Origin: an uncultured Eubacteriales bacterium
GTDB taxonomy: Bacteria; Bacillota; Clostridia; Oscillospirales; Butyricicoccaceae
Length of the DNA: 21,378 nucleotides
Assembly: GCA_934630445.1 (NCBI GenBank)
Contig: CAKTWY010000018.1
Span: 1-21,378 of the forward strand
Reading direction: 5' to 3'
The notes under the pieces were generated by a model that was given only the letters and a program-made list of their open reading frames with translations, searched no databases and had not been told where the DNA came from. A program made the position numbers and the translations under genes. Shown one piece after another: positions 4,171-11,558 of this stretch. The first letter of the stretch is position 1. Each line of letters begins with the position of its first letter.

Positions 4171-5619
4171 ATGGAAGACTTGATTTTGACAGGCGGAACC
4201 GTTGTCACGATGGACGGCGCGCACCGCGTCATCCCCGGCGGCGCAGTGGCGGTGAAGGACGGGCGCATCACCGCTGTCGGCACGGCGGAGCAGCTGGCGG
4301 CGCTCGACGCCGCGCGCGTTGTGCGCACGGAGGGGAAAATCGTCCTCCCGGGCCTCATCAACTGCCACTCGCACGCCGGCCACTGCATCGTCGGCAAGCT
4401 CGAAACGGACAGCATGTACCGCTGGTGGCCGATGCTGATCGAGGTGTATGAAAATTATGCGGACGCGGCCTTCTGGCATGCGGACGGAGCGCTGCACGCA
4501 TGCGCAGCGCTCAGGAACGGCATCACCACGTCCGTCAATGTCATGGGCAGCACCCCGATGGGCGACTGCCCTGAGATACCGGCCAGCCACGCCGCGGGCT
4601 ATGCCGGGGTCGGCGGGCGCGAAATCCTCGGCGTCGGCATCCCGCATGCGGAGACGTACCCCAAGACCTATACCCGCTGGAAGAATGGAAAGCGCGCAGC
4701 GCTCCGTGCCGGAGTCGACGATATGCTTGCCGGAACGGAGGAGGCGCTGAAAACCGTGCATAACGCGCACGGGGGCCTCACGCAGGTGTTCGTCACGCCG
4801 CATCAGCAGCTGATGGGGCACGAACCGGGGGAGAAAAATCCCGCGAACCTCACCAGGCTGACGCAGCTGGAACTGGATATCAACCGCAAGGTGCGCGCGC
4901 TGGCCAGAAAATACGCCACACAGGTGTATACCGACACTTATGGCGGCTGGGTGACGCTTGCCTATACGGACAAGGAGAATATGCTCCTGGGGGAGGACGT
5001 GCTCATTGGGATGGAGCATGTCGCCGCGACGGACTACCGCGAGGTGCAGATTATCGCCGAGACCGGCACCAAGGTCTATTACACGAGCGAGGGCCTTTAT
5101 AAGCGTGTGCCGGTCAGCGAGCTGATGGCGCTGGGCGTACCGGTATCGATCACGACGAACGGCTGCGCGCCGCGCACGACGCTCGACCTTCTGGAAGCGC
5201 TGCGCCGCGCCGTGCTTGCCGAGCGGATCTTTCACGACGATGCAGCGTATCTGCACGCGGCCAGGGCGCTCGCCTGCGTCACGACCGACGCGGCGCGCTG
5301 CATCGGCCGGGCGCACGACCTGGGGTCGCTGGAAGCGGGCAAGTGCGCGGATATCGCAGTCCTTGACGCGTCGCGCGCGGACATGCTGCCGCTGACAGAC
5401 CCGCTCTCGCGCATCGTGACGAACGCCGCGGGCGGCGACTTCTGCATGACGATCGTCGGCGGCAAAGTCGTCTTTGAAGACGGCACGATCCGCACGGTCG
5501 ATGAGCGCGATGTTCTGCGCGAGGCGGATGAAGTGCATGCGCGCATGGTGCGCGACCTGAAGCTGGAGGATTACGCCTGCAAGCCCATCTGGGGCAAGAC
5601 GCGCATGGAATTTATCTGA
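4171..5619 (+). CDS. amidohydrolase-superfamily protein (chlorohydrolase/deaminase-like; HxH present)
   Basis: ATG at 4171, one nucleotide after the upstream stop, with a GAGGAGG ribosome-binding site. Protein features are MEDLILTGGTVVTMDG…, GRITAVG, PGLINCHSHAGH (HxH) and a C-terminal GSLEAGKCADIAVLD. The annotated upstream extension of this ORF (3949..) overlaps the previous gene and is Arg-rich junk. Confidence 0.75.
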   Translation: MEDLILTGGTVVTMDGAHRVIPGGAVAVKDGRITAVGTAEQLAALDAARVVRTEGKIVLPGLINCHSHAGHCIVGKLETDSMYRWWPMLIEVYENYADAAFWHADGALHACAALRNGITTSVNVMGSTPMGDCPEIPASHAAGYAGVGGREILGVGIPHAETYPKTYTRWKNGKRAALRAGVDDMLAGTEEALKTVHNAHGGLTQVFVTPHQQLMGHEPGEKNPANLTRLTQLELDINRKVRALARKYATQVYTDTYGGWVTLAYTDKENMLLGEDVLIGMEHVAATDYREVQIIAETGTKVYYTSEGLYKRVPVSELMALGVPVSITTNGCAPRTTLDLLEALRRAVLAERIFHDDAAYLHAARALACVTTDAARCIGRAHDLGSLEAGKCADIAVLDASRADMLPLTDPLSRIVTNAAGGDFCMTIVGGKVVFEDGTIRTVDERDVLREADEVHARMVRDLKLEDYACKPIWGKTRMEFI

Positions 5620-6112
5620 GATTGACTGAGCAGCCGACACAGCTGTTCCTCTCGCGCGCCCGCGGCTGTGAAAACGTGCGGAAATATTCCGCGAGCAGGG
5701 CGATAAACTGGCTGTTTGTCGGCCGTTCATTCAAATCTGAATGTGTCAGTTCAGAGAACAGACCTTGCCCGCCAGTGAGCCAGATGCGCTCAATTGCGTG
5801 GCGCATTGCGCGTTCGATGTTGAAGGATGCAGTGTCGTGGCGCTTTGCAAGCGGCGGGTAGATATCCTTTGTAATGTTCACAGGCGCCGGACTGTGCTCG
5901 AGATACAGAGCGACGGCCTGGCAAAGATAGACGTATCCCTTCCGGTGCGGAGAGAGACCAAGTTGGGTCAGCACGGAGGCGATTTGCGCGTCCAGGGAAG
6001 AGTCGCACGCGTCAGGCGCGGCATCTTCCCAGGCGCGCTCTTTTTTATCCTGCAGGGTGATGGTCAGAATGGTGCCGTTGCCGATCTCCAGCTGAAATAT
6101 CTTGCCCTCCAT
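5612..6112 (-). CDS. Spo0A C-terminal (DNA-binding, 0A-box-binding) domain protein with no receiver domain
   Basis: 166-aa ORF. Residues about 55-166 (GYVYLCQAVALYLEH…ITKDIYPPLAKRHDTASFNIERAMRHAIERIW…ERPTNSQFIALLAEYF) align by eye with the B. subtilis Spo0A C-domain (GYLYLREAI…[32 protein letters not shown]…KPTNSEFIAMVADKL). The N-terminal 50 aa have no resemblance to a CheY-like receiver. GGAAGGGG ribosome-binding site 8 nt upstream of the ATG. Confidence 0.7.
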   Translation of the reverse strand: MEGKIFQLEIGNGTILTITLQDKKERAWEDAAPDACDSSLDAQIASVLTQLGLSPHRKGYVYLCQAVALYLEHSPAPVNITKDIYPPLAKRHDTASFNIERAMRHAIERIWLTGGQGLFSELTHSDLNERPTNSQFIALLAEYFRTFSQPRARERNSCVGCSVNLR

Positions 6113-6987: not shown

Positions 6988-7036
6988 CACCGCACATTTC
7001 AATCGGTATTTTTCGCAAGTTTTTTATCAGTTGTTA

Positions 7037-7065
7037 TTGACATATGTCCATAATTCTGCTATTGT
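7037..7065 (+). promoter_or_regulatory. sigma-A-type promoter: -35 TTGACA, 17 bp, extended -10 TGcTATTGT
   Basis: Consensus TTGACA at 7037-7042, 17-bp spacer, a TG dinucleotide at 7057-7058 and TATTGT at 7060-7065. It sits 28 bp upstream of the DUF134 start codon. Confidence 0.5.
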
Positions 7066-7092
7066 GATGGCGTATCATAAAGGGGGAAAGAA

Positions 7093-7494
7093 ATGGCAAG
7101 GCCGCAGAAATGCAGATGTATCTGCTCAATGCCGAAGACAAGCATGTTTTTTCCGGCGGACGGCGATGGCAGCGCCGGGTGTGTGGTCCTCGGACTCGAC
7201 GAGTACGAAGTCATACGCCTGCTCGATCTGGAGCATTTTTCACAGGAGCGGTGTGCAAAGCGGATGAATATTGCGCGCACAACGGTTACACGGATGTACG
7301 ATACCGCGCGGGAGAAAATTGCAGAGGCGCTTGTAGGCGGTAAGCGCCTTGTCATTGACGGAGGGAATATCATGGTCTGCAAGCGTATGAAGCCGGAATG
7401 CCGGAACGAGCCCCACTGCTGTCACAGGGATGCTGCGTCGGCGGATACGCAGCGGACCGATCCGAAAAACGAGTGTAAAGGAGAAGGAAGATGA
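7093..7494 (+). CDS. DUF134/UPF0251-family predicted DNA-binding protein, Cys-rich
   Basis: The N-terminal MARPQKCRCI… is the hallmark start of DUF134 proteins. A sigma-70 region-4-like helix-turn-helix follows (…EYEVIRLLDLEHFSQERCAKRMNIARTTVTRMYDTAREKIAEAL…). Cysteines cluster at C7/C9/C11/C30 and in the C-terminal CKRMKPECRNEPHCCH. AAAGGGGGAAAG ribosome-binding site. The stop TGA overlaps the next start codon (ATGA). Confidence 0.7.
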   Translation: MARPQKCRCICSMPKTSMFFPADGDGSAGCVVLGLDEYEVIRLLDLEHFSQERCAKRMNIARTTVTRMYDTAREKIAEALVGGKRLVIDGGNIMVCKRMKPECRNEPHCCHRDAASADTQRTDPKNECKGEGR

Positions 7495-10073
7495 AAGTAC
7501 TCATCATCGGCGGTGTCGCCGCAGGAACAAAAACCGCGGCAAAGCTGAAACGCGAAGACCGCGATGCCGACGTGACGCTCATTACGAAGAGCCGCGATAT
7601 CTCCTACGCGGGCTGCGGCCTGCCGTACTACATAGGCGGCGTGATTGAGGACAGGGAAGAGCTGATCGTCAACACACCGGAAAAGTATCAGGCGCTTACA
7701 GGCGTAAATGTGCGCACTGGCCGCGAGGCTGTCGTGCTCGATGCACAGGAAAAATCGGTGTTGGCGAAAAATCTCACCACGGACGAGCAGGAGCGCTACG
7801 CTTACGACAAGCTGGTCATTGCCGTGGGTGCGTCCGCCGTGCTGCCGCCTGTCGAGGGAATTGATCTGCAGGGTGTTTTTTCGCTCCGTACGCCGGACGA
7901 TGCGATTGCCGCGCGCGATTATGTGAAAGGCAGCGGCGTCAGGCGTGCTGTCGTTATAGGCGGGGGCTTTATCGGCCTTGAGGCCGCGGAAAATTTGAAA
8001 GCACAGGGCGTGCTTGTCACGGTGGTGGATTTTGCATCGCAGATCATGCCCGGCGTGTTCGACGCCGAGATGGCGGACTATGTCAGCCGTCATCTGCAGA
8101 AAAACGGCGTGCGCGTCGTGACCGGTGCGCGCGTCGAGGCACTGCTCGGAGAGGGGCGCGTGGGCGCGGTGCGTACCACGGCGGGCACATTCCCCTGCGA
8201 TATGGCGGTCATGGCGGTCGGTATCCGGCCGAACACAGCGTTTTTGCAGGGGAGCGGCCTGGCGATGGAAAAGGGCGCGATCCTTGTCGACGAATATCTG
8301 CGCACGAATCTGGCTGATGTGTACGCGGCGGGCGACTGTGCGCTTGTGAAAAACCGCCTGACGGGCGATACGCAGTATGCGCCTATGGGATCGAGTGCGA
8401 ATCTCGAGGGGCGCACGCTCGCGCAGGTGCTTGCAGGGCGGGATAAACGCTTTTCAGGTGTCCTTGGAACGGGGATCGTAAAGCTGCCGGAGCTGAATTG
8501 CGGCAGAACAGGTTTGACGGAGAGCGCCGCGCGCGCTGCGGGCTATGATGTGGAAACGGTGCTCGCCGTAACGGACGACAAAGCGCATTATTATCCGGGC
8601 ACAGCGCTCTTTATGACAAAGCTGATCGCCGAGCGCAGGAGCCGCAGACTCCTCGGTGCGCAGGTCCTCGGTGCGGGCGCGGTGGACAAGATGGTCGATA
8701 TTGCCGTGCTTGCCATCTCCATGGGAGCGGCGCTGGAGGACCTTGAAAATCTCGACTTCGCCTACGCTCCGCCTTTTTCGACGGCCATCCACCCGTTTGT
8801 ACAGGCGGTCTATATTTTGCAGAATAAGATGGACGGCGCGCTCGCGAGCATGACGCCGGCCGAGTATCTGGCCGGAAAGGCCGAAGGTTACCGCGTGATC
8901 GACGTTGCGCAGGCGCCGAAAATTCCGGGCGCGACGTTTGTGAATCTCAGTGCTGTCAACGGGCCGATCGAAGGCGTCGGAAAGGATGAAAAGCTGCTGC
9001 TCGTATGCAACAGGGGAAAACGCGCGTACTTTCTGCAAAACCGCCTGAAACATTACGGCTACAAAAATACCGTGGTGCTTGAAGGGGCGACAGTCTTTAA
9101 CGAAGTACGCGTGGCGGGCGCGGTCTCGGCTGTTTCAGACGCAGATATCACGCGGGTGAAGGCGCTCGGCTTTCTGCGCGATAAGACGACGCCTGACTGC
9201 TTCAACGCGCGCGTCATCACACGAAACGGCAAGATCACGGCTGAAGAGAGCCGCGCCATCAGTGAGGCCGCCGAGCGCTTCGGAAGCGGCGAAATCGCCA
9301 TGACCTCGCGCCTGACGATCGAGATACAGGCTGTGCCGTATGCGAACATCGAACCGCTCAGGTCCTTCCTCGCGCAGGCGGGGCTGGAAACGGGCGGAAC
9401 GGGGTCGAAGGTACGCCCGGTCGTCTCCTGCAAGGGCACGACCTGCCAGTATGGCCTTATCGACACCTTCTCCCTCTCGGAAGAGATCCACGAGCGGTTT
9501 TATCACGGCTACGCCGGGGTAAAGCTGCCGCATAAATTTAAAATCGCCGTGGGCGGGTGCCCGAACAACTGCGTAAAGCCCGATCTGAACGACCTGGGAA
9601 TCATCGGGCAGAAGGTGCCGCAGATGGATCTGAGTCTTTGCCGCGGCTGCAGGGTATGTCAGGTGGAAAACGCCTGTCCGATCAAGGCGGCCAGGGTTCA
9701 GGACGGAAAACTCGTCATCGATGCCGGTGCGTGCAACCACTGCGGACGCTGCATCGGAAAATGTCCGTTCAAGGCGGTCGAGCGCTTCGTTGCCGGCTAC
9801 CGGATCTATATCGGCGGCAGATGGGGCAAGCGTGTGGCGCACGGACGGTATCTCGACCGGGTCTTCACGGACAGGAGCGAGGTGCTCGATGTGGTCGAAA
9901 AGGCGATCCTCCTTTTCCGCGAGCAGGGGATTACCGGCGAGCGCTTCGCCGATACGATCGCGCGCCTTGGCTTTGACGCCGTGCAGGAGGAGCTGCTGCG
10001 GAACGATCTTCTCGCGCGCAAAGAGGAAAACATCGCCGCGCAGAAGCACCTCAAAGGCGGCGCCACATGCTGA
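7491..10073 (+). CDS. 860-aa three-domain fusion: CoA-disulfide reductase/NADH oxidase-like flavoprotein + rhodanese + siroheme sulfite-reductase-like domain (AsrC/DsrB-type) with a 2x[4Fe-4S] ferredoxin insert
   Basis: Residues 1-440 have the GxGxxG FAD site (MKVLIIGGVAAGT), the single redox Cys motif SYAGCGLPYY and a second Rossmann fold (VVIGGGFIGLE), as in the CoADR/Nox/Npr family. Residues about 450-545 are a rhodanese domain with a CNRGKR active-site loop. Residues about 550-860 carry a nitrite/sulfite-reductase ferredoxin-like half-domain, then CKGTTC…GGCPNNC (siroheme-[4Fe-4S] Cys ligands), then CRGCRVCQVENACP and CNHCGRCIGKCP (two ferredoxin-type clusters). It is translationally coupled to the DUF134 gene. 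Confidence 0.8.
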   Translation: MKVLIIGGVAAGTKTAAKLKREDRDADVTLITKSRDISYAGCGLPYYIGGVIEDREELIVNTPEKYQALTGVNVRTGREAVVLDAQEKSVLAKNLTTDEQERYAYDKLVIAVGASAVLPPVEGIDLQGVFSLRTPDDAIAARDYVKGSGVRRAVVIGGGFIGLEAAENLKAQGVLVTVVDFASQIMPGVFDAEMADYVSRHLQKNGVRVVTGARVEALLGEGRVGAVRTTAGTFPCDMAVMAVGIRPNTAFLQGSGLAMEKGAILVDEYLRTNLADVYAAGDCALVKNRLTGDTQYAPMGSSANLEGRTLAQVLAGRDKRFSGVLGTGIVKLPELNCGRTGLTESAARAAGYDVETVLAVTDDKAHYYPGTALFMTKLIAERRSRRLLGAQVLGAGAVDKMVDIAVLAISMGAALEDLENLDFAYAPPFSTAIHPFVQAVYILQNKMDGALASMTPAEYLAGKAEGYRVIDVAQAPKIPGATFVNLSAVNGPIEGVGKDEKLLLVCNRGKRAYFLQNRLKHYGYKNTVVLEGATVFNEVRVAGAVSAVSDADITRVKALGFLRDKTTPDCFNARVITRNGKITAEESRAISEAAERFGSGEIAMTSRLTIEIQAVPYANIEPLRSFLAQAGLETGGTGSKVRPVVSCKGTTCQYGLIDTFSLSEEIHERFYHGYAGVKLPHKFKIAVGGCPNNCVKPDLNDLGIIGQKVPQMDLSLCRGCRVCQVENACPIKAARVQDGKLVIDAGACNHCGRCIGKCPFKAVERFVAGYRIYIGGRWGKRVAHGRYLDRVFTDRSEVLDVVEKAILLFREQGITGERFADTIARLGFDAVQEELLRNDLLARKEENIAAQKHLKGGATC

Positions 10074-10113
10074 CAAAGGGCGCGTGCAGATGATAGCAGC
10101 GGGATAAAGCGGA

Positions 10114-10153
10114 AAGATGCCCTTCTGCATGTTTGCAGAAGGGCATCTTTTTT
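10114..10153 (+). terminator. Rho-independent terminator
   Basis: AGATGCCCTTCTGCA / TGCAGAAGGGGCATCT stem (15 bp with a 1-nt bulge), a 4-nt loop and a TTTTTT run, 40 bp after the stop of the fusion gene. Confidence 0.8.
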
Positions 10154-10269
10154 GTATTTTGCCGCGAGAATGTACTGACAAAAGGCGGCTTGCGGAAAAG
10201 CAGAACACAGAGCATTTTATGTATAGAACATGCGCACTGGATGAAGTGACGCGCACCCTTCACGCGCGG

Positions 10270-10275: not shown

Positions 10276-10328
10276 CCATTTATAACACAGTCTGCGAAGT
10301 GCCGCAGCTGAAAAGAGGAGGAGAGCCA

Positions 10329-11558
10329 ATGTTCACCGATGCAGAGCGGAGCATCCTGCGCGAGCTCGCGCAAAAGCAGCTGGAAGCGGCGCACAGTTCC
10401 AAAAACCTCGAGCGTGTCGCGCTCTGGAAACGCCATAACGCCCTCAAAGGCGAGCGGCCGGTGCTGCATATTGAAATAAATACGTTTGAAGACGAGGTGA
10501 TCGGGCCGCGGTTAAAATGTGCAGATCCTGTAGCGCGGGAAATTGAGGCGCGTCTGTGGCGCAGCATGATCAACCTGACTGAATTTGACGACGACAAGGT
10601 CGTGCCGGATTATTACGGCATATCCCAGGAATACGACTATCAGCCCCTCGGCTTCGAGATCCGTATGCATCACGCTGCAGACGGAGGGCTTGGGCACCAG
10701 TTCGAGCATCAGATCAGCGACCTTAAAGAAGAATTCTCCAAACTCGGTACATCGCGCTTTATCCCGCGCGACGCCGCATTCCATGCGCATTTTGACGCGG
10801 CGCAGGATGTGATCGGCGACATCCTGCCGGTGCGCAGGGTGATGCCGTCTCTGTATGCAACGCCTACGCAGGACATTGTGCATATCATGGGGCTTGAAAA
10901 CATGCTTTACGCGCTCTACGACTATCCTGAGGAGCTCAGACAGATGATCGAGCGCATTGCCGACGGATATATCGCGCATTTCGATATGCTGGAAAAAAAC
11001 GGTCTGCTGCTTCCCACGACGGGCTTTGAGGAGACGAATCAGGGTTCGCTGAGCTTTACGGATGAACTCCCGCACGAAGGGCCGGTTACGGTCGGACAGG
11101 TGTGGGGATTTATGGATTCGCAGGAGACGGTCGGCGTATCCAAAGAGATGTTTGAAGAACTCATCTTCCCTGCGTATTACCGCGTGGGGTCGCGCTTCGG
11201 GCTGCTGTCGTACGGATGCTGCGAGCCGGTCGACCCGGTGTGGGAGTTGCTCAGCCGCTTTCAAAACCTGAGAAAGGTTTCTGTATCCGCATGGGCCGAC
11301 GAGGAGAAAATGGGCGGGTACCTTGCGGGGAGCAGGACCATTTACCAGCGAAAGCCGAGCCCGAATTACCTCGGCGTCGGAACAACGTTCGACGAAGACG
11401 GCTGGCGTGCGCATATCGAACAAACGCTGCGCTGCGCGAAGGACTGCAAGCTCGAGTTCACCGTGCGCGACGTGTACACGATCAACAGCGATATCGGCAA
11501 GGTCTGCCGCGCGGTAGAGATCATGCGCGAGTCGATTGCACGGCTGTGGAACGCGTGA
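10329..11558 (+). CDS. hypothetical protein, possibly uroporphyrinogen-decarboxylase (URO-D)-like methyltransferase/decarboxylase fold
   Basis: ATG at 10329 has an AGAGGAGGAGA ribosome-binding site 8 nt upstream; the earlier in-frame ATG at 10299 has none. The segment …MGLENMLYALYDYPEELRQMIERIADGYIAHFDMLEKNG… resembles the conserved middle region of URO-D/MtaA-family proteins. Weak, by-eye assignment. Confidence 0.45.
   Translation: MFTDAERSILRELAQKQLEAAHSSKNLERVALWKRHNALKGERPVLHIEINTFEDEVIGPRLKCADPVAREIEARLWRSMINLTEFDDDKVVPDYYGISQEYDYQPLGFEIRMHHAADGGLGHQFEHQISDLKEEFSKLGTSRFIPRDAAFHAHFDAAQDVIGDILPVRRVMPSLYATPTQDIVHIMGLENMLYALYDYPEELRQMIERIADGYIAHFDMLEKNGLLLPTTGFEETNQGSLSFTDELPHEGPVTVGQVWGFMDSQETVGVSKEMFEELIFPAYYRVGSRFGLLSYGCCEPVDPVWELLSRFQNLRKVSVSAWADEEKMGGYLAGSRTIYQRKPSPNYLGVGTTFDEDGWRAHIEQTLRCAKDCKLEFTVRDVYTINSDIGKVCRAVEIMRESIARLWNA

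Follow-up and report, generated by a model that had tools for sequence, protein, structure and literature searches.

A predicted NADH-dependent siroheme reductase fused to a rhodanese domain in a two-gene operon of gut Clostridia

[quoted passage not shown] Electrons are transferred from the flavin over Fe-S clusters to the siroheme within this single chain, and according to a 2022 Fsr structure preprint no other sulfite reductase is fused to the module that supplies its electrons. In AsrABC of Salmonella and Clostridium the corresponding functions are divided over three subunits, AsrA (Fe-S), AsrB (FAD/[2Fe-2S]) and AsrC, the last of which is assigned to the group III Dsr-LPs and also contains a ferredoxin insert (PMC3448663). 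In NirB, the large subunit of NADH-nitrite reductase, a Pyr_redox_2 flavoprotein lies N-terminal to NIR_SIR_ferr and NIR_SIR and is bridged to them by a BFD-like [2Fe-2S] domain. Enzymes of the Npsr, CoADR-RHD and CoA-persulfide reductase type (3nta, 3icr, 6pfz, 8a56) stop after the rhodanese domain; in other CoADR-RHD proteins the sulfur carriers TusA or DsrE are found at the equivalent C-terminal position. A rhodanese-NirA/Sir fusion is on record for Halobacteria (PMC11237513), and for fermentative Halanaerobium a thiosulfate-to-sulfide route consisting of a rhodanese and the anaerobic sulfite reductase was proposed (PMC5497025). In a review on sulfide in the gut from June 2026, only DsrAB and AsrABC are listed.

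The window analyzed here, i.e., the whole stretch of 21,378 nucleotides from contig CAKTWY010000018.1 of an uncultured Eubacteriales bacterium, encodes an 860-aa protein which carries the database name 'FAD-dependent oxidoreductase'. Like Fsr, it unites on one chain a flavin input module and a group III siroheme domain into which a two-[4Fe-4S] ferredoxin is inserted. The input module of Fsr, however, is FrhB-like, F420H2-dependent and provided with three extra [4Fe-4S] clusters, whereas that of the fusion is of the CoADR/Npsr type, probably NADH-dependent, and has no such clusters. Moreover, Fsr is archaeal and contains neither a rhodanese domain nor a redox Cys. Compared to the Npsr and CoADR-RHD enzymes, the fusion extends beyond the rhodanese domain into the siroheme reductase domain. 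With AsrABC it would share the NADH donor and the product, but homologs of AsrA or AsrB are missing. In contrast to the fusion, NirB lacks a redox Cys, a rhodanese domain and the two-cluster insert. A literature search found no paper describing or assaying the fusion protein, in line with the initial annotation, in which the architecture was taken to be undescribed. For the joining of a flavoprotein donor to a siroheme module as such, NirB and Fsr are precedents that had been left unnamed. It is proposed, with a probability of roughly 0.55, that the large product of the operon is a soluble siroheme reductase, probably a homodimer, which uses NADH to convert sulfite to H2S and is likely to act on thiosulfate or sulfane sulfur as well.

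Operon layout and domain architecture

Two open reading frames sharing an ATGA overlap were found on the forward strand (Table 1), and both are preceded by a separate Shine-Dalgarno sequence, the DUF134 gene by GGGGG (7082-7086) and the 860-aa gene by AAGGAG (7478-7483). In the promoter scan the TTGACA-17-TATTGT site with its upstream TG scored 10 of 12 positions, and four promoter-like sites were present in the scanned region compared to 1.4 expected in shuffles. The terminator stem (stem-loop at 10111-10152) contains 8 GC pairs and is followed by the T run. The single promoter, the overlap and the single terminator that had been read initially were thus each seen in the sequence scans, and the DUF134 gene and the large fusion gene form a real two-gene operon.

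Table 1. Features of the operon (positions in the window; aa, residues of the encoded protein).
Feature	Position	Strand	Details
Candidate DUF134 operator TTATTGACATATGTCCATAA	7034..7053	+	conserved palindromic element
Sigma-70-type promoter	7037..7065	+	-35 TTGACA (7037-7042), 17-nt spacer, extended -10 TG-n-TATTGT (7060-7065)
DUF134/UPF0251 gene, 133 aa	7093..7494	+	PF02001, E 9e-22
Fusion gene, 860 aa	7491..10073	+
Flavoprotein module, aa 1-445	7491..8825	+	FAD and NADH Rossmann folds, Cys42, D180, dimerization domain
Rhodanese domain, aa ~450-540	8838..9110	+	catalytic Cys506, six-residue loop C-x-x-G-K-R
Siroheme sulfite/nitrite-reductase domain, aa ~548-840	9132..10010	+	group III Dsr-LP / Fsr-C type
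Inserted 2x[4Fe-4S] ferredoxin, aa 712-765	9624-9785	+	Fer4, 8 invariant Cys
C-terminal tail, aa 841-860	10011..10073	+	ends KGGATC-COOH, then stop codon
Intrinsic terminator	10111..10162	+	19-bp stem, 4-nt loop, T run

The domain order flavoprotein, rhodanese and siroheme domain with ferredoxin, as proposed initially, was recovered by the Pfam scan, the PDB alignment and the fold match. Pyr_redox_2 was identified at aa 1-287 (E 5e-64), in place of the N-terminal FrhB-type F420H2-oxidase module of Fsr, and Pyr_redox_dim at aa 335-433. The redox Cys of the predicted single-Cys flavoprotein, C42, lies in SYAGCGLPY (aa 38-46; S-[FY]-x-x-C motif) and is conserved in all 81 members. The Rossmann glycines G7/G12 and G157/G162 (GxGxxG, for FAD and NAD(P)H) are invariant. 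Since position 180 is D or E in all 81 members, NADH would be the favored donor.

The Pfam Rhodanese match (aa 469-532) scored 20.6 bits, slightly below the cut-off of 22.2. It was accepted because the PDB alignment to CoADR-RHD enzymes extends to aa 536, because Foldseek superimposed the protein on 8a56, 3ict and 6pfz with a TM(target) of 0.89-0.92 over ∼540 columns, and because a 44% identical homolog, P0122, reached 48 bits and passed the cut-off. The CNRGKR loop recognized earlier was located at aa 506-511, with C506 conserved in 81/81 and R511 in 80/81 members. Residues 1-540 are 34-37% identical to 3nta, 3icr, 6pfz and 8a56. They adopt the same fold with the rhodanese domain in the same place, and both the S-x-x-x-C redox Cys and the Cys of the rhodanese are found in them. 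The NCBIfam equivalogs for CoA-disulfide reductase stayed below their cut-offs (NF007123, 408.5 of 458 bits; TIGR03385, 400.6 of 578.8 bits). By sequence and fold, this part of the protein is a flavoprotein of the CoA-persulfide-reductase/Npsr type to which a rhodanese domain is attached.

In the C-terminal part, NIR_SIR_ferr (aa 571-628; 44.2 bits, cut-off 24) and NIR_SIR (aa 638-835; E 4e-31, 108 bits, cut-off 27) were identified. The predicted siroheme Cys pattern is present as CKGTTC (aa 647-652) and GGCPNNC (aa 688-694), and the Cys residues of the siroheme-coupled [4Fe-4S] cluster, C647, C652, C690 and C694, are all invariant and align to the Cys428/Cys434 pair and the CPNxC motif of Fsr. 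The first pair is spaced C-X4-C, as compared to C-X5-C in Fsr, which is a counterpoint to a sulfite reductase; the X4 spacing also occurs in close standalone SIR homologs. The ferredoxin insert, likewise predicted, was matched by Fer4 at aa 712-763 and has eight invariant Cys in the arrangement C-x2-C-x2-C-x5-C-P and C-x2-C-x2-C-x3-C-P. Among named families the closest to this domain is Fsr-C, with ∼255 residues aligned (E 5e-37), including the cluster Cys, Arg423, Lys460 and Lys462. Thus, the siroheme domain of the initial annotation stands, but its designation as AsrC/DsrB-like does not, as the NCBIfam cut-offs were missed by a wide margin (AsrC model TIGR02912, 98.7 of 324 bits; dsrB, 84 of 341.5; dsrA, 80 of 393). 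The last ∼300 residues are best described as a putative Fsr-C/AsrC-type siroheme-[4Fe-4S] domain.

Candidates for anion binding are R574/R578, R642, K682 and K684. In Fsr the anion is bound by R355, R423, K460 and K462 (2022 Fsr structure preprint), and R642, K682 and K684 align to the last three of these. The alignment starts only at aa 573-580, and the counterpart of R355 probably is the R574/R578 position (R-x-x-x-R-x-G), just beyond the printed alignment. R574 is found in 81/81 and R578 in 77/81 members. These residues bear on a possible reading of the protein as an NADH-dependent reductase of nitrite or hydroxylamine, an analog of NirB serving detoxification or as electron sink, with the rhodanese domain as a structural remnant. 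Such a role is suggested by the JGI name 'NAD(P)H-nitrite reductase large subunit', by the match of the NirB model TIGR02374 to the N-terminal flavoprotein (222.8 bits), and by the activity of Fsr and other sulfite reductases on nitrite, group II Fsr being a nitrite reductase. However, R642, at the position of Fsr Arg423, is Arg in 81/81 members and Arg is also found at the inferred Arg355 position, whereas both arginines are replaced in group II Fsr. Furthermore, the NirB score falls far short of the equivalog cut-off of 578 bits, Pfam detected no BFD-like [2Fe-2S] domain, no nitrate or nitrite genes were found among the neighbors of the fusion, and the invariant Cys506, Cys42 and tail Cys would be superfluous for a nitrite reductase. 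A nitrite or hydroxylamine reductase is therefore improbable.

Conservation of the fusion and of its terminal Cys

All 80 genomes that were retained, from gut Lachnospiraceae and Oscillospirales and with cultured strains among them, contain the fusion, and its length of ∼860 aa is strictly kept in two clostridial orders. Across 81 full-length homologs its catalytic residues and terminal Cys are invariant (numbering of the window protein), R511 and R578 being nearly so. The fusion is common in gut Clostridia, yet apparently unstudied, and hydrogen sulfide produced by it may so far have been overlooked. In one locus pair (L089/L090) the protein is split into a 545-aa CoADR-RHD and, after a gap of 119 nt, a 317-aa SIR ending in SGGATC; because the separate genes remain adjacent, the flavoprotein-rhodanese and siroheme modules probably belong together. 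In the AF2 model of the 860-aa protein, which has a modest inter-domain confidence (pTM 0.63), a very short linker joins the rhodanese domain to the SIR domain.

Regulators, genes for the synthesis of siroheme and genes for the transport of iron or chelates recur as neighbors of the fusion. In one clade siroheme-synthesis genes adjoin the fusion: hemA is the first or second gene downstream in 10 of the 81 loci and the immediate neighbor in 8 of these. After it come sirC (precorrin-2 dehydrogenase/ferrochelatase), in 7 loci, and hemC, in 5, which supports the use of siroheme. No genes for sulfur uptake or assimilation were found among the -1/+1 neighbors or the window genes scanned (1-15.2 kb), a point against the function proposed here.

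The C-terminal tail, with pLDDT values below 50 at aa 852-860 of the AF2 model, is predicted to be flexible. Its motif GGA[T/S]C with the terminal Cys860 is present in 81/81 members, including P0122. Besides the fusion, the split SIR gene beside CoADR-RHD and P0129, in which SIR is fused to a C_GCAxxG_C_C domain, have the tail. The standalone SIR P0130/P0427, without a thiol-redox neighbor gene, does not; the tail thus tracks with a thiol-redox partner module. The GGATC tail, the split-gene version and the commonness of the fusion did not appear in the initial annotation.

Proposed function of the fusion protein

Judged by its domains and conserved residues, NADH-driven reduction of sulfite to H2S is the most likely function. 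FAD would be reduced by NADH and electrons would pass via the ferredoxin insert to the siroheme, as in Fsr. Because C42, C506 and C860 are invariant in 81/81 members, thiol chemistry beyond electron input seems to be retained. A thiol relay may run from Cys42, probably via bound CoA, over Cys506 to Cys860 and handle zero-valent sulfur. In one option, the rhodanese would split thiosulfate, the persulfide being reduced by NADH and the sulfite by the siroheme. Alternatively, the tail Cys could take partly reduced sulfur off the siroheme and deliver it to the persulfide reductase. The latter resembles DsrC in the DsrAB system, where a flexible Cys arm could likewise reach the siroheme, but the analogy is purely functional: sequence homology to DsrC is lacking, the Pfam scan detected no DsrC family, the tail has one Cys instead of two and is part of the reductase chain itself, and a soluble NADH flavoprotein, not the membrane complex DsrMKJOP, would act as the reductant.

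Neither the Pfam scan nor the conservation revealed an evident Fe-S or [2Fe-2S] cluster bridging the FAD and the ferredoxin insert. Elsewhere such a bridge is provided by the [2Fe-2S] domain in NirB, by AsrA and AsrB in AsrABC and by the three extra clusters in Fsr, and the electron path from FAD to siroheme is therefore a putative one. It is possible, although doubtful, that two chemically separate enzymes reside on one chain, an NADH-dependent CoA-persulfide/polysulfide reductase and a ferredoxin- or flavodoxin-dependent sulfite reductase, with NADH not feeding the siroheme and an external donor reducing the ferredoxin insert. The fusion would then serve co-expression only, or the persulfide reductase would clear sulfane by-products of the siroheme site. 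Besides the missing bridge, this agrees with the standalone SIR P0130/P0427, which has no flavoprotein neighbor, so that this domain can presumably work with an external donor, and with P0129, in which the SIR-plus-tail module is coupled to a non-flavin domain. The CoADR-type flavoproteins characterized so far act as two-electron reductases of disulfides or persulfides, and none is known to donate to Fe-S clusters. On the other hand, the strict conservation of the fusion and its length across both orders, the adjacency of the split genes, the very short rhodanese-SIR linker and the co-variation of the tail with its partner module argue for physical cooperation, short of proving electron transfer.

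As a point against the reading as a sulfite reductase, standalone Dsr-LPs do not confer sulfite reduction on methanogens (PMC3448663). CoADR-RHD modules are often fused to TusA or DsrE and sometimes to histidine-kinase domains, which would fit a role in sulfur trafficking, in the oxidative direction from persulfide or sulfide to sulfite, or as a sensor, instead of sulfide production. Oxidation of sulfide to sulfite with NAD+ is, however, strongly endergonic by the standard redox potentials, the hosts are strict fermentative anaerobes and the full catalytic residue set is conserved, making this role very improbable.

The DUF134 gene and a candidate operator

The 133-aa protein was matched by PF02001 with 78 bits (cut-off 27 bits) and weakly by Sigma70_r4_2. 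Its helix-turn-helix at aa ∼35-82 resembles sigma region 4 and the DeoR DNA-binding domain (profile match to 7bhy, E 3.5e-5), and solved structures matched the AF2 model (pLDDT 78.6) by this element only. The protein contains 10 cysteines, both termini being Cys-rich, and C11, C54, C96, C103, C109 and C110 are invariant in 34 homologs.

The core of the candidate operator, TTGACATATGTYCA, is an imperfect palindrome with the center ACATATGT, overlapping the -35. DUF134 loci have a common 14-nt palindromic element over the -35: when up to two mismatches are allowed, it occurs 5' of DUF134 in 19 independent related loci that carry this gene and extend far enough upstream. Loci without DUF134 had no copy on the forward strand; in two of them a reverse-strand match with two mismatches lies ∼510-534 nt upstream. 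One such site was found in the window, compared to 0.14 expected by chance. The conserved element strengthens the regulatory link in DUF134 loci. In the present lineage, the Cys-rich protein may bind the palindrome over the -35 and control the operon in response to a redox, iron or sulfur signal.

The regulator suggested initially is thus supported by its sigma-70-like helix-turn-helix, its cysteines and an operator-like element, but it is not a constant partner of the fusion gene. DUF134 lies immediately 5' of the fusion gene in 15 of 75 loci and nearby in a few more; altogether, no more than about one-fifth to one-quarter of the loci have it ahead of the fusion. In about ten other loci the position upstream of the fusion is occupied by a LysR-type regulator.

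Domain composition and active-site residues of the fusion protein

Comparison of the 860-aa fusion protein with solved structures showed that residues 1-536 align with NADH-dependent persulfide reductases (Npsr) and with CoA-disulfide reductase-rhodanese proteins (CoADR-RHD), with E values of 1e-101 to 1e-79 (6pfz, 8a56, 3icr, 3nta). The AlphaFold model of the fusion (pLDDT 82.9, pTM 0.63) could be superposed over ~540 columns on the E. faecalis CoA-persulfide reductase, the B. anthracis CoADR-RHD and the A. fulgidus Npsr, with TM(target) values of 0.89-0.92. Since this superposition takes in the rhodanese domain, the rhodanese claimed in the initial annotation is real, although its Pfam score was sub-threshold; in P0122, a 44% identical homologue, the domain scored 48 bits.

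Conservation was analyzed in 81 aligned sequences with 43-75% identity, made up of the protein of the window, 78 full-length homologues from the loci that were fetched, and a pair of divergent cluster representatives. Cys42 of the SYAGC motif, Cys506 of the rhodanese loop, Cys647, Cys652, Cys690, Cys694, the eight cysteines of the ferredoxin insert, Arg574, Arg642, Lys682 and Lys684 were invariant (81/81). Position 180, the NADH-preference position, was acidic in every sequence, and Arg511 of the rhodanese loop was present in 80 of the 81.

The Fsr (F420-dependent sulfite reductase) structure paper describes four sulfite-binding residues, namely Arg355, Arg423, Lys460 and Lys462. In a residue-level alignment to Fsr, Arg642, Lys682 and Lys684 of the fusion correspond to the last three of these, and Arg355, located just ahead of the printed alignment, is probably Arg574 or Arg578. 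Unlike group II Fsr, the nitrite-reducing type in which both arginines are lost (Fsr structure paper), the fusion retains the aligned Arg642 and an arginine at the inferred position of the other. Under the classification of Susanti and Mukhopadhyay (PMC3448663), which places Fsr-C and AsrC in the same class, the siroheme sulfite/nitrite reductase (SIR) domain, with all four basic residues, is by its sequence a group III Dsr-LP. The first Cys pair of the fusion is C-X4-C (CKGTTC) instead of the C-X5-C of Fsr; the X4 spacing is common to close standalone SIR homologues. At the sequence level, no hallmark of a sulfite reductase is lacking in the fusion. Membership in the CoA-disulfide reductase, NirB, AsrC, DsrA and DsrB families was ruled out, as the scores stayed below all NCBIfam equivalog cut-offs.

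Features of the window, of the fusion protein and of related loci
Feature	Position	Strand	Details
Spo0A_C-only ORF	window 5612-6112	-	166 aa, no receiver domain; kept in near-identical contig L002
Upstream element	window 7034-7053		TTATTGACATATGTYCATAA
Promoter	7037-7065		TTGACA-17-TATTGT, TG in front; promoter scan
Shine-Dalgarno, DUF134 gene	7082-7086		GGGGG
DUF134 gene	7093-7494	+	133-aa ORF
Shine-Dalgarno, fusion gene	7478-7483		AAGGAG, within 3' end of DUF134 gene
Fusion gene	7491-10073	+	860-aa ORF
Terminator	10111-10152		19-bp stem; same scan as promoter
419-aa ORF	window 10299-11558	+	directly past terminator; no Pfam match at E <=1e-3; also called in L002 (409 aa)
Pyr_redox_2	aa 1-287		Pfam
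Pyr_redox_dim	aa 335-433		Pfam
Rhodanese	aa 469-532		Pfam, marginal
NIR_SIR_ferr	aa 571-628		Pfam
NIR_SIR	aa 638-835		Pfam; broken by Fer4 at aa 712-763
Upstream element at DUF134	L001, L008, L014-L017, L021, L023, L028, L030, L032-L035, L040, L041, L044, L083, L087		related loci
DUF134 homologue in Christensenella	L085 4001-6264		upstream of 43-aa ORF and YgiQ-type radical SAM gene; no fusion
Siroheme-synthesis genes (examples)	L060 6592-7725; L053 7737-9513		directly downstream of fusion
Uptake system	L096 4647-8278; L097 2295-5926; L087 7074-8378; L006 2845-3819; L052 7571-8596		Peripla_BP_2/FecCD/ABC ATPase
Split version	L089 5001-7710; L090 1949-4658		adjacent genes, divergent LysR upstream, feoAB downstream
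P0129 gene	L091 and L092, 5001-6356		451 aa

Distribution and gene neighbourhood

A protein search gave thousands of matches, of which the best 120 clusters (90% identity) were inspected. Nearly all of these were proteins of 860 aa with 71-75% identity to the query, one being its 99% twin, and the names, where given, include "FAD-dependent oxidoreductase". One homologue, P0002, has 1060 aa as called, 200 residues more than the otherwise near-constant length. When one genome per GTDB species was scanned with peptide patterns of the SIR domain, at least 595 loci were found to encode a relative. Standalone SIR proteins may be among them, so that at least 80 species genomes can be counted firmly as carriers of the fusion: all 80 retained loci encode it, 77 of them in full and three truncated by the end of a contig, with 61-75% identity. 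The hosts among the Lachnospiraceae include Blautia, Mediterraneibacter, Sellimonas intestinalis, Faecalicatena orotica DSM 1287, Eisenbergiella tayi DSM 26961 and Hungatella, and those among the Oscillospirales Clostridium leptum DSM 753 (75%, the best match among the retained loci), Gemmiger, Acutalibacter, Neglectibacter and Pseudoflavonifractor gallinarum. The gene is found in many dominant fermentative Clostridia, among them cultured strains of C. leptum, S. intestinalis, F. orotica, E. tayi and P. gallinarum. The family is common, yet narrow in sequence: a library clustered at 50% identity contained just two full-length clusters.

No sulfur-related gene was found in the flanks of the operon within the window (1-15.2 kb scanned), which, besides the ORFs in the table, contain genes for a radical SAM protein and for two regulators, of the XRE/S24-like and AraC types. 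Among 141 flanking genes of the related loci no sulfur-assimilation context was found, and genes for sulfate, sulfite or thiosulfate transport or for cysteine synthesis were not recurrent. A LysR-type regulator occurred in 10 loci (mostly at -1). In a clade of Eisenbergiella-like Lachnospiraceae (L046-L062), hemA, sirC and hemC directly follow the fusion gene; in total, hemA was found at +1 in 8 loci and at +2 in 2 more, sirC (precorrin-2 dehydrogenase/sirohydrochlorin ferrochelatase) in 7 loci (mostly +2) and hemC in 5 (+3). That genes for siroheme synthesis adjoin the fusion indirectly supports genuine siroheme binding by the C-terminal domain.

Genes for a Peripla_BP_2 binding protein (6-7 loci, +1), a FecCD permease (4 loci, +2) and an ABC ATPase (10 loci, mostly +2/+3) were also observed. 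Together they form an uptake system of the iron-chelate, haem or cobalamin type 3' of the SIR or fusion gene, and in L096 and L097 it begins with a start codon that overlaps the stop codon of the SIR gene. The system could supply iron or tetrapyrrole for the cofactors.

The DUF134 gene and its candidate operator

The two co-directional ORFs overlap by the four bases ATGA. With this overlap, the promoter and the terminator all found, the operon layout described in the initial annotation is correct. The small protein belongs to DUF134/UPF0251 by Pfam, and C11, C54, C96, C103, C109 and C110 were invariant in 34 close homologues. For its helix-turn-helix, matches were found to the DeoR DNA-binding domain and to sigma-70 region 4, and the remainder of the protein has no counterpart among solved structures.

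The DUF134 gene lies immediately upstream of the fusion in 15 of the 75 loci whose upstream DNA is long enough (between 12 and 16 under different ORF calls), and an obligate partnership was therefore rejected. The subfamily is not tied to a single target either, since in L085 the neighbour of its Christensenella member is a YgiQ-type radical SAM gene and not the fusion.

When the 160 nt ahead of DUF134 were compared across 22 loci, a common element, TTATTGACATATGTTCATAA, was recognised in flanks that otherwise did not align. Within it, a 14-nt core, TTGACATATGTYCA, forms an imperfect palindrome with the centre ACATATGT, and the element overlaps the -35 region upstream of those DUF134 genes that precede the fusion. 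In the window, the core at 7037-7050 consists of the -35 hexamer and the following 8 nt and is the sole match, compared to 0.14 expected by chance. With up to two mismatches, the core precedes DUF134 in the window and in a further 19 independent loci among the relatives, all with the DUF134-fusion order and enough upstream DNA. A second copy of the element occurs ~20 nt upstream in some loci. No copy of the core on the + strand could be identified upstream of the fusion among loci without DUF134; in two of these, L036 and L045, a reverse-strand match with 2 mismatches lies ~510-534 nt upstream. The core was also absent in L009, where DUF134 sits 2 kb upstream of the fusion, and at the Christensenella gene.

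TTATTGACATATGTCCATAA is named as candidate target DNA of DUF134, and there is good comparative evidence for a predicted autoregulated, DUF134-controlled operon. No literature on DUF134 function was found, and this uncharacterised family would gain its first target operon together with a candidate first binding site.

The C-terminal Cys tail and the proposed sulfur chemistry

All 81 sequences end in G-G-A-(T/S)-C-COOH. This end is also kept in P0122, and the 15 residues ahead of it are variable. Since the last nine residues have a pLDDT below 50, the tail is predicted to be a flexible arm with the invariant Cys860 at its tip. The tail was not mentioned in the initial annotation.

In a split version of the system (L089/L090), a divergent LysR gene is followed by genes for a 545-aa CoADR-RHD with 59% identity to residues 1-540 of the fusion and, after a 119-nt gap, for a 317-aa SIR protein with the C-terminus SGGATC, and by feoAB. 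The closest standalone SIR proteins without a flavoprotein neighbour, P0130/P0427, are 65% identical, end differently and have no tail. P0129, which belongs to a cluster of 18 members and also has no flavoprotein neighbour, combines a 'putative redox-active' Cys-rich domain (C_GCAxxG_C_C) with SIR and the GGATC tail. Other CoADR-RHD proteins carry TusA, TusA and DsrE, or a second rhodanese at the corresponding C-terminal position. Together with the invariant Cys42, Cys506 and Cys860, the split pair, the tail distribution and the fusions to sulfur carriers show, at the level of sequence comparison, that the flavoprotein module is more than a diaphorase; these comparisons also show thiol-based sulfur chemistry under selection, with the tail accompanying a thiol-redox partner.

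The alignments show the parts of the protein and their conservation, and the mechanism proposed for them has three steps. In step (a), NADH would reduce FAD. In step (b), the two-cluster insert would carry electrons to the siroheme by analogy with Fsr, in which the electron relay is completed by dimerisation (Fsr structure paper). In step (c), zero-valent sulfur would be handled by a chain of Cys42 (probably via bound CoA), Cys506 and Cys860. Step (b), the path from flavin to siroheme, is the weak point, because no bridging cluster is present between the flavin and the insert, and because no CoADR-type flavoprotein is known to donate single electrons. Owing to this weakness, the main rival explanation, which both points favour, is that the siroheme domain is fed by ferredoxin and fused to an NADH persulfide reductase.

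Two routes can be envisaged for step (c). Thiosulfate could be split by the rhodanese into a Cys506 persulfide and sulfite, the former being reduced by NADH and the latter by the siroheme; such a two-step scheme, with the rhodanese and Asr as separate proteins, was proposed, with proteomics support, in Halanaerobium (PMC5497025). In a DsrC-like route, the tail cysteine would take partly reduced sulfur off the siroheme and the persulfide reductase would complete the reduction. The full reading, to which we give a chance of about one in four, is that the working principles of DsrAB, of DsrC and of a system that reduces DsrC are united in a single soluble polypeptide. It would be an NADH-driven thiosulfate/sulfite-to-sulfide reductase in which zero-valent sulfur travels on the rhodanese Cys and the invariant C-terminal Cys arm, back and forth between the siroheme pocket and the CoA-persulfide-reductase site, and in which the flavin in addition supplies the Fe-S chain. 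In some lineages a DUF134 repressor of a new, Cys-rich kind (Fe-S or metal) would control it by binding over the -35. Given the many abundant gut Lachnospiraceae and Oscillospirales with the gene, such an enzyme would constitute a major uncounted intestinal H2S route.

Literature searches yielded no description of this fusion, in agreement with the initial annotation, which had not recognised the architecture as a described one. Neither the parts nor the principle of fusing a siroheme reductase to its donor is new, with Fsr and NirB as examples, and a 2024 survey contains an uncharacterised rhodanese-NirA/Sir fusion from Halobacteria (PMC11237513). Interest is added by the prevalence in the gut and by a thiol relay that is invariant yet unexplained. 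A 2026 review on sulfide in the gut (PMC13232883) credits H2S formation from sulfite only to AsrABC and to the DsrAB of a few sulfate or taurine respirers. Because the AsrC model score of the fusion is far under the cut-off, surveys at the AsrC/DsrA/DsrB trusted cut-offs would miss it. If the enzyme is active, the list of gut sulfide producers has to be revised, each sulfite offers fermenters a sink for 3 NADH, Fsr is joined by a second natural donor-fused sulfite reductase, and the thiol relay may reveal a DsrC-free handling of sulfur intermediates.

Two further CoADR-RHD proteins, P0146 and P0175, carry an N-terminal HisKA/HATPase_c histidine-kinase module, an architecture that suggests persulfide or redox sensing on the same flavoprotein scaffold.
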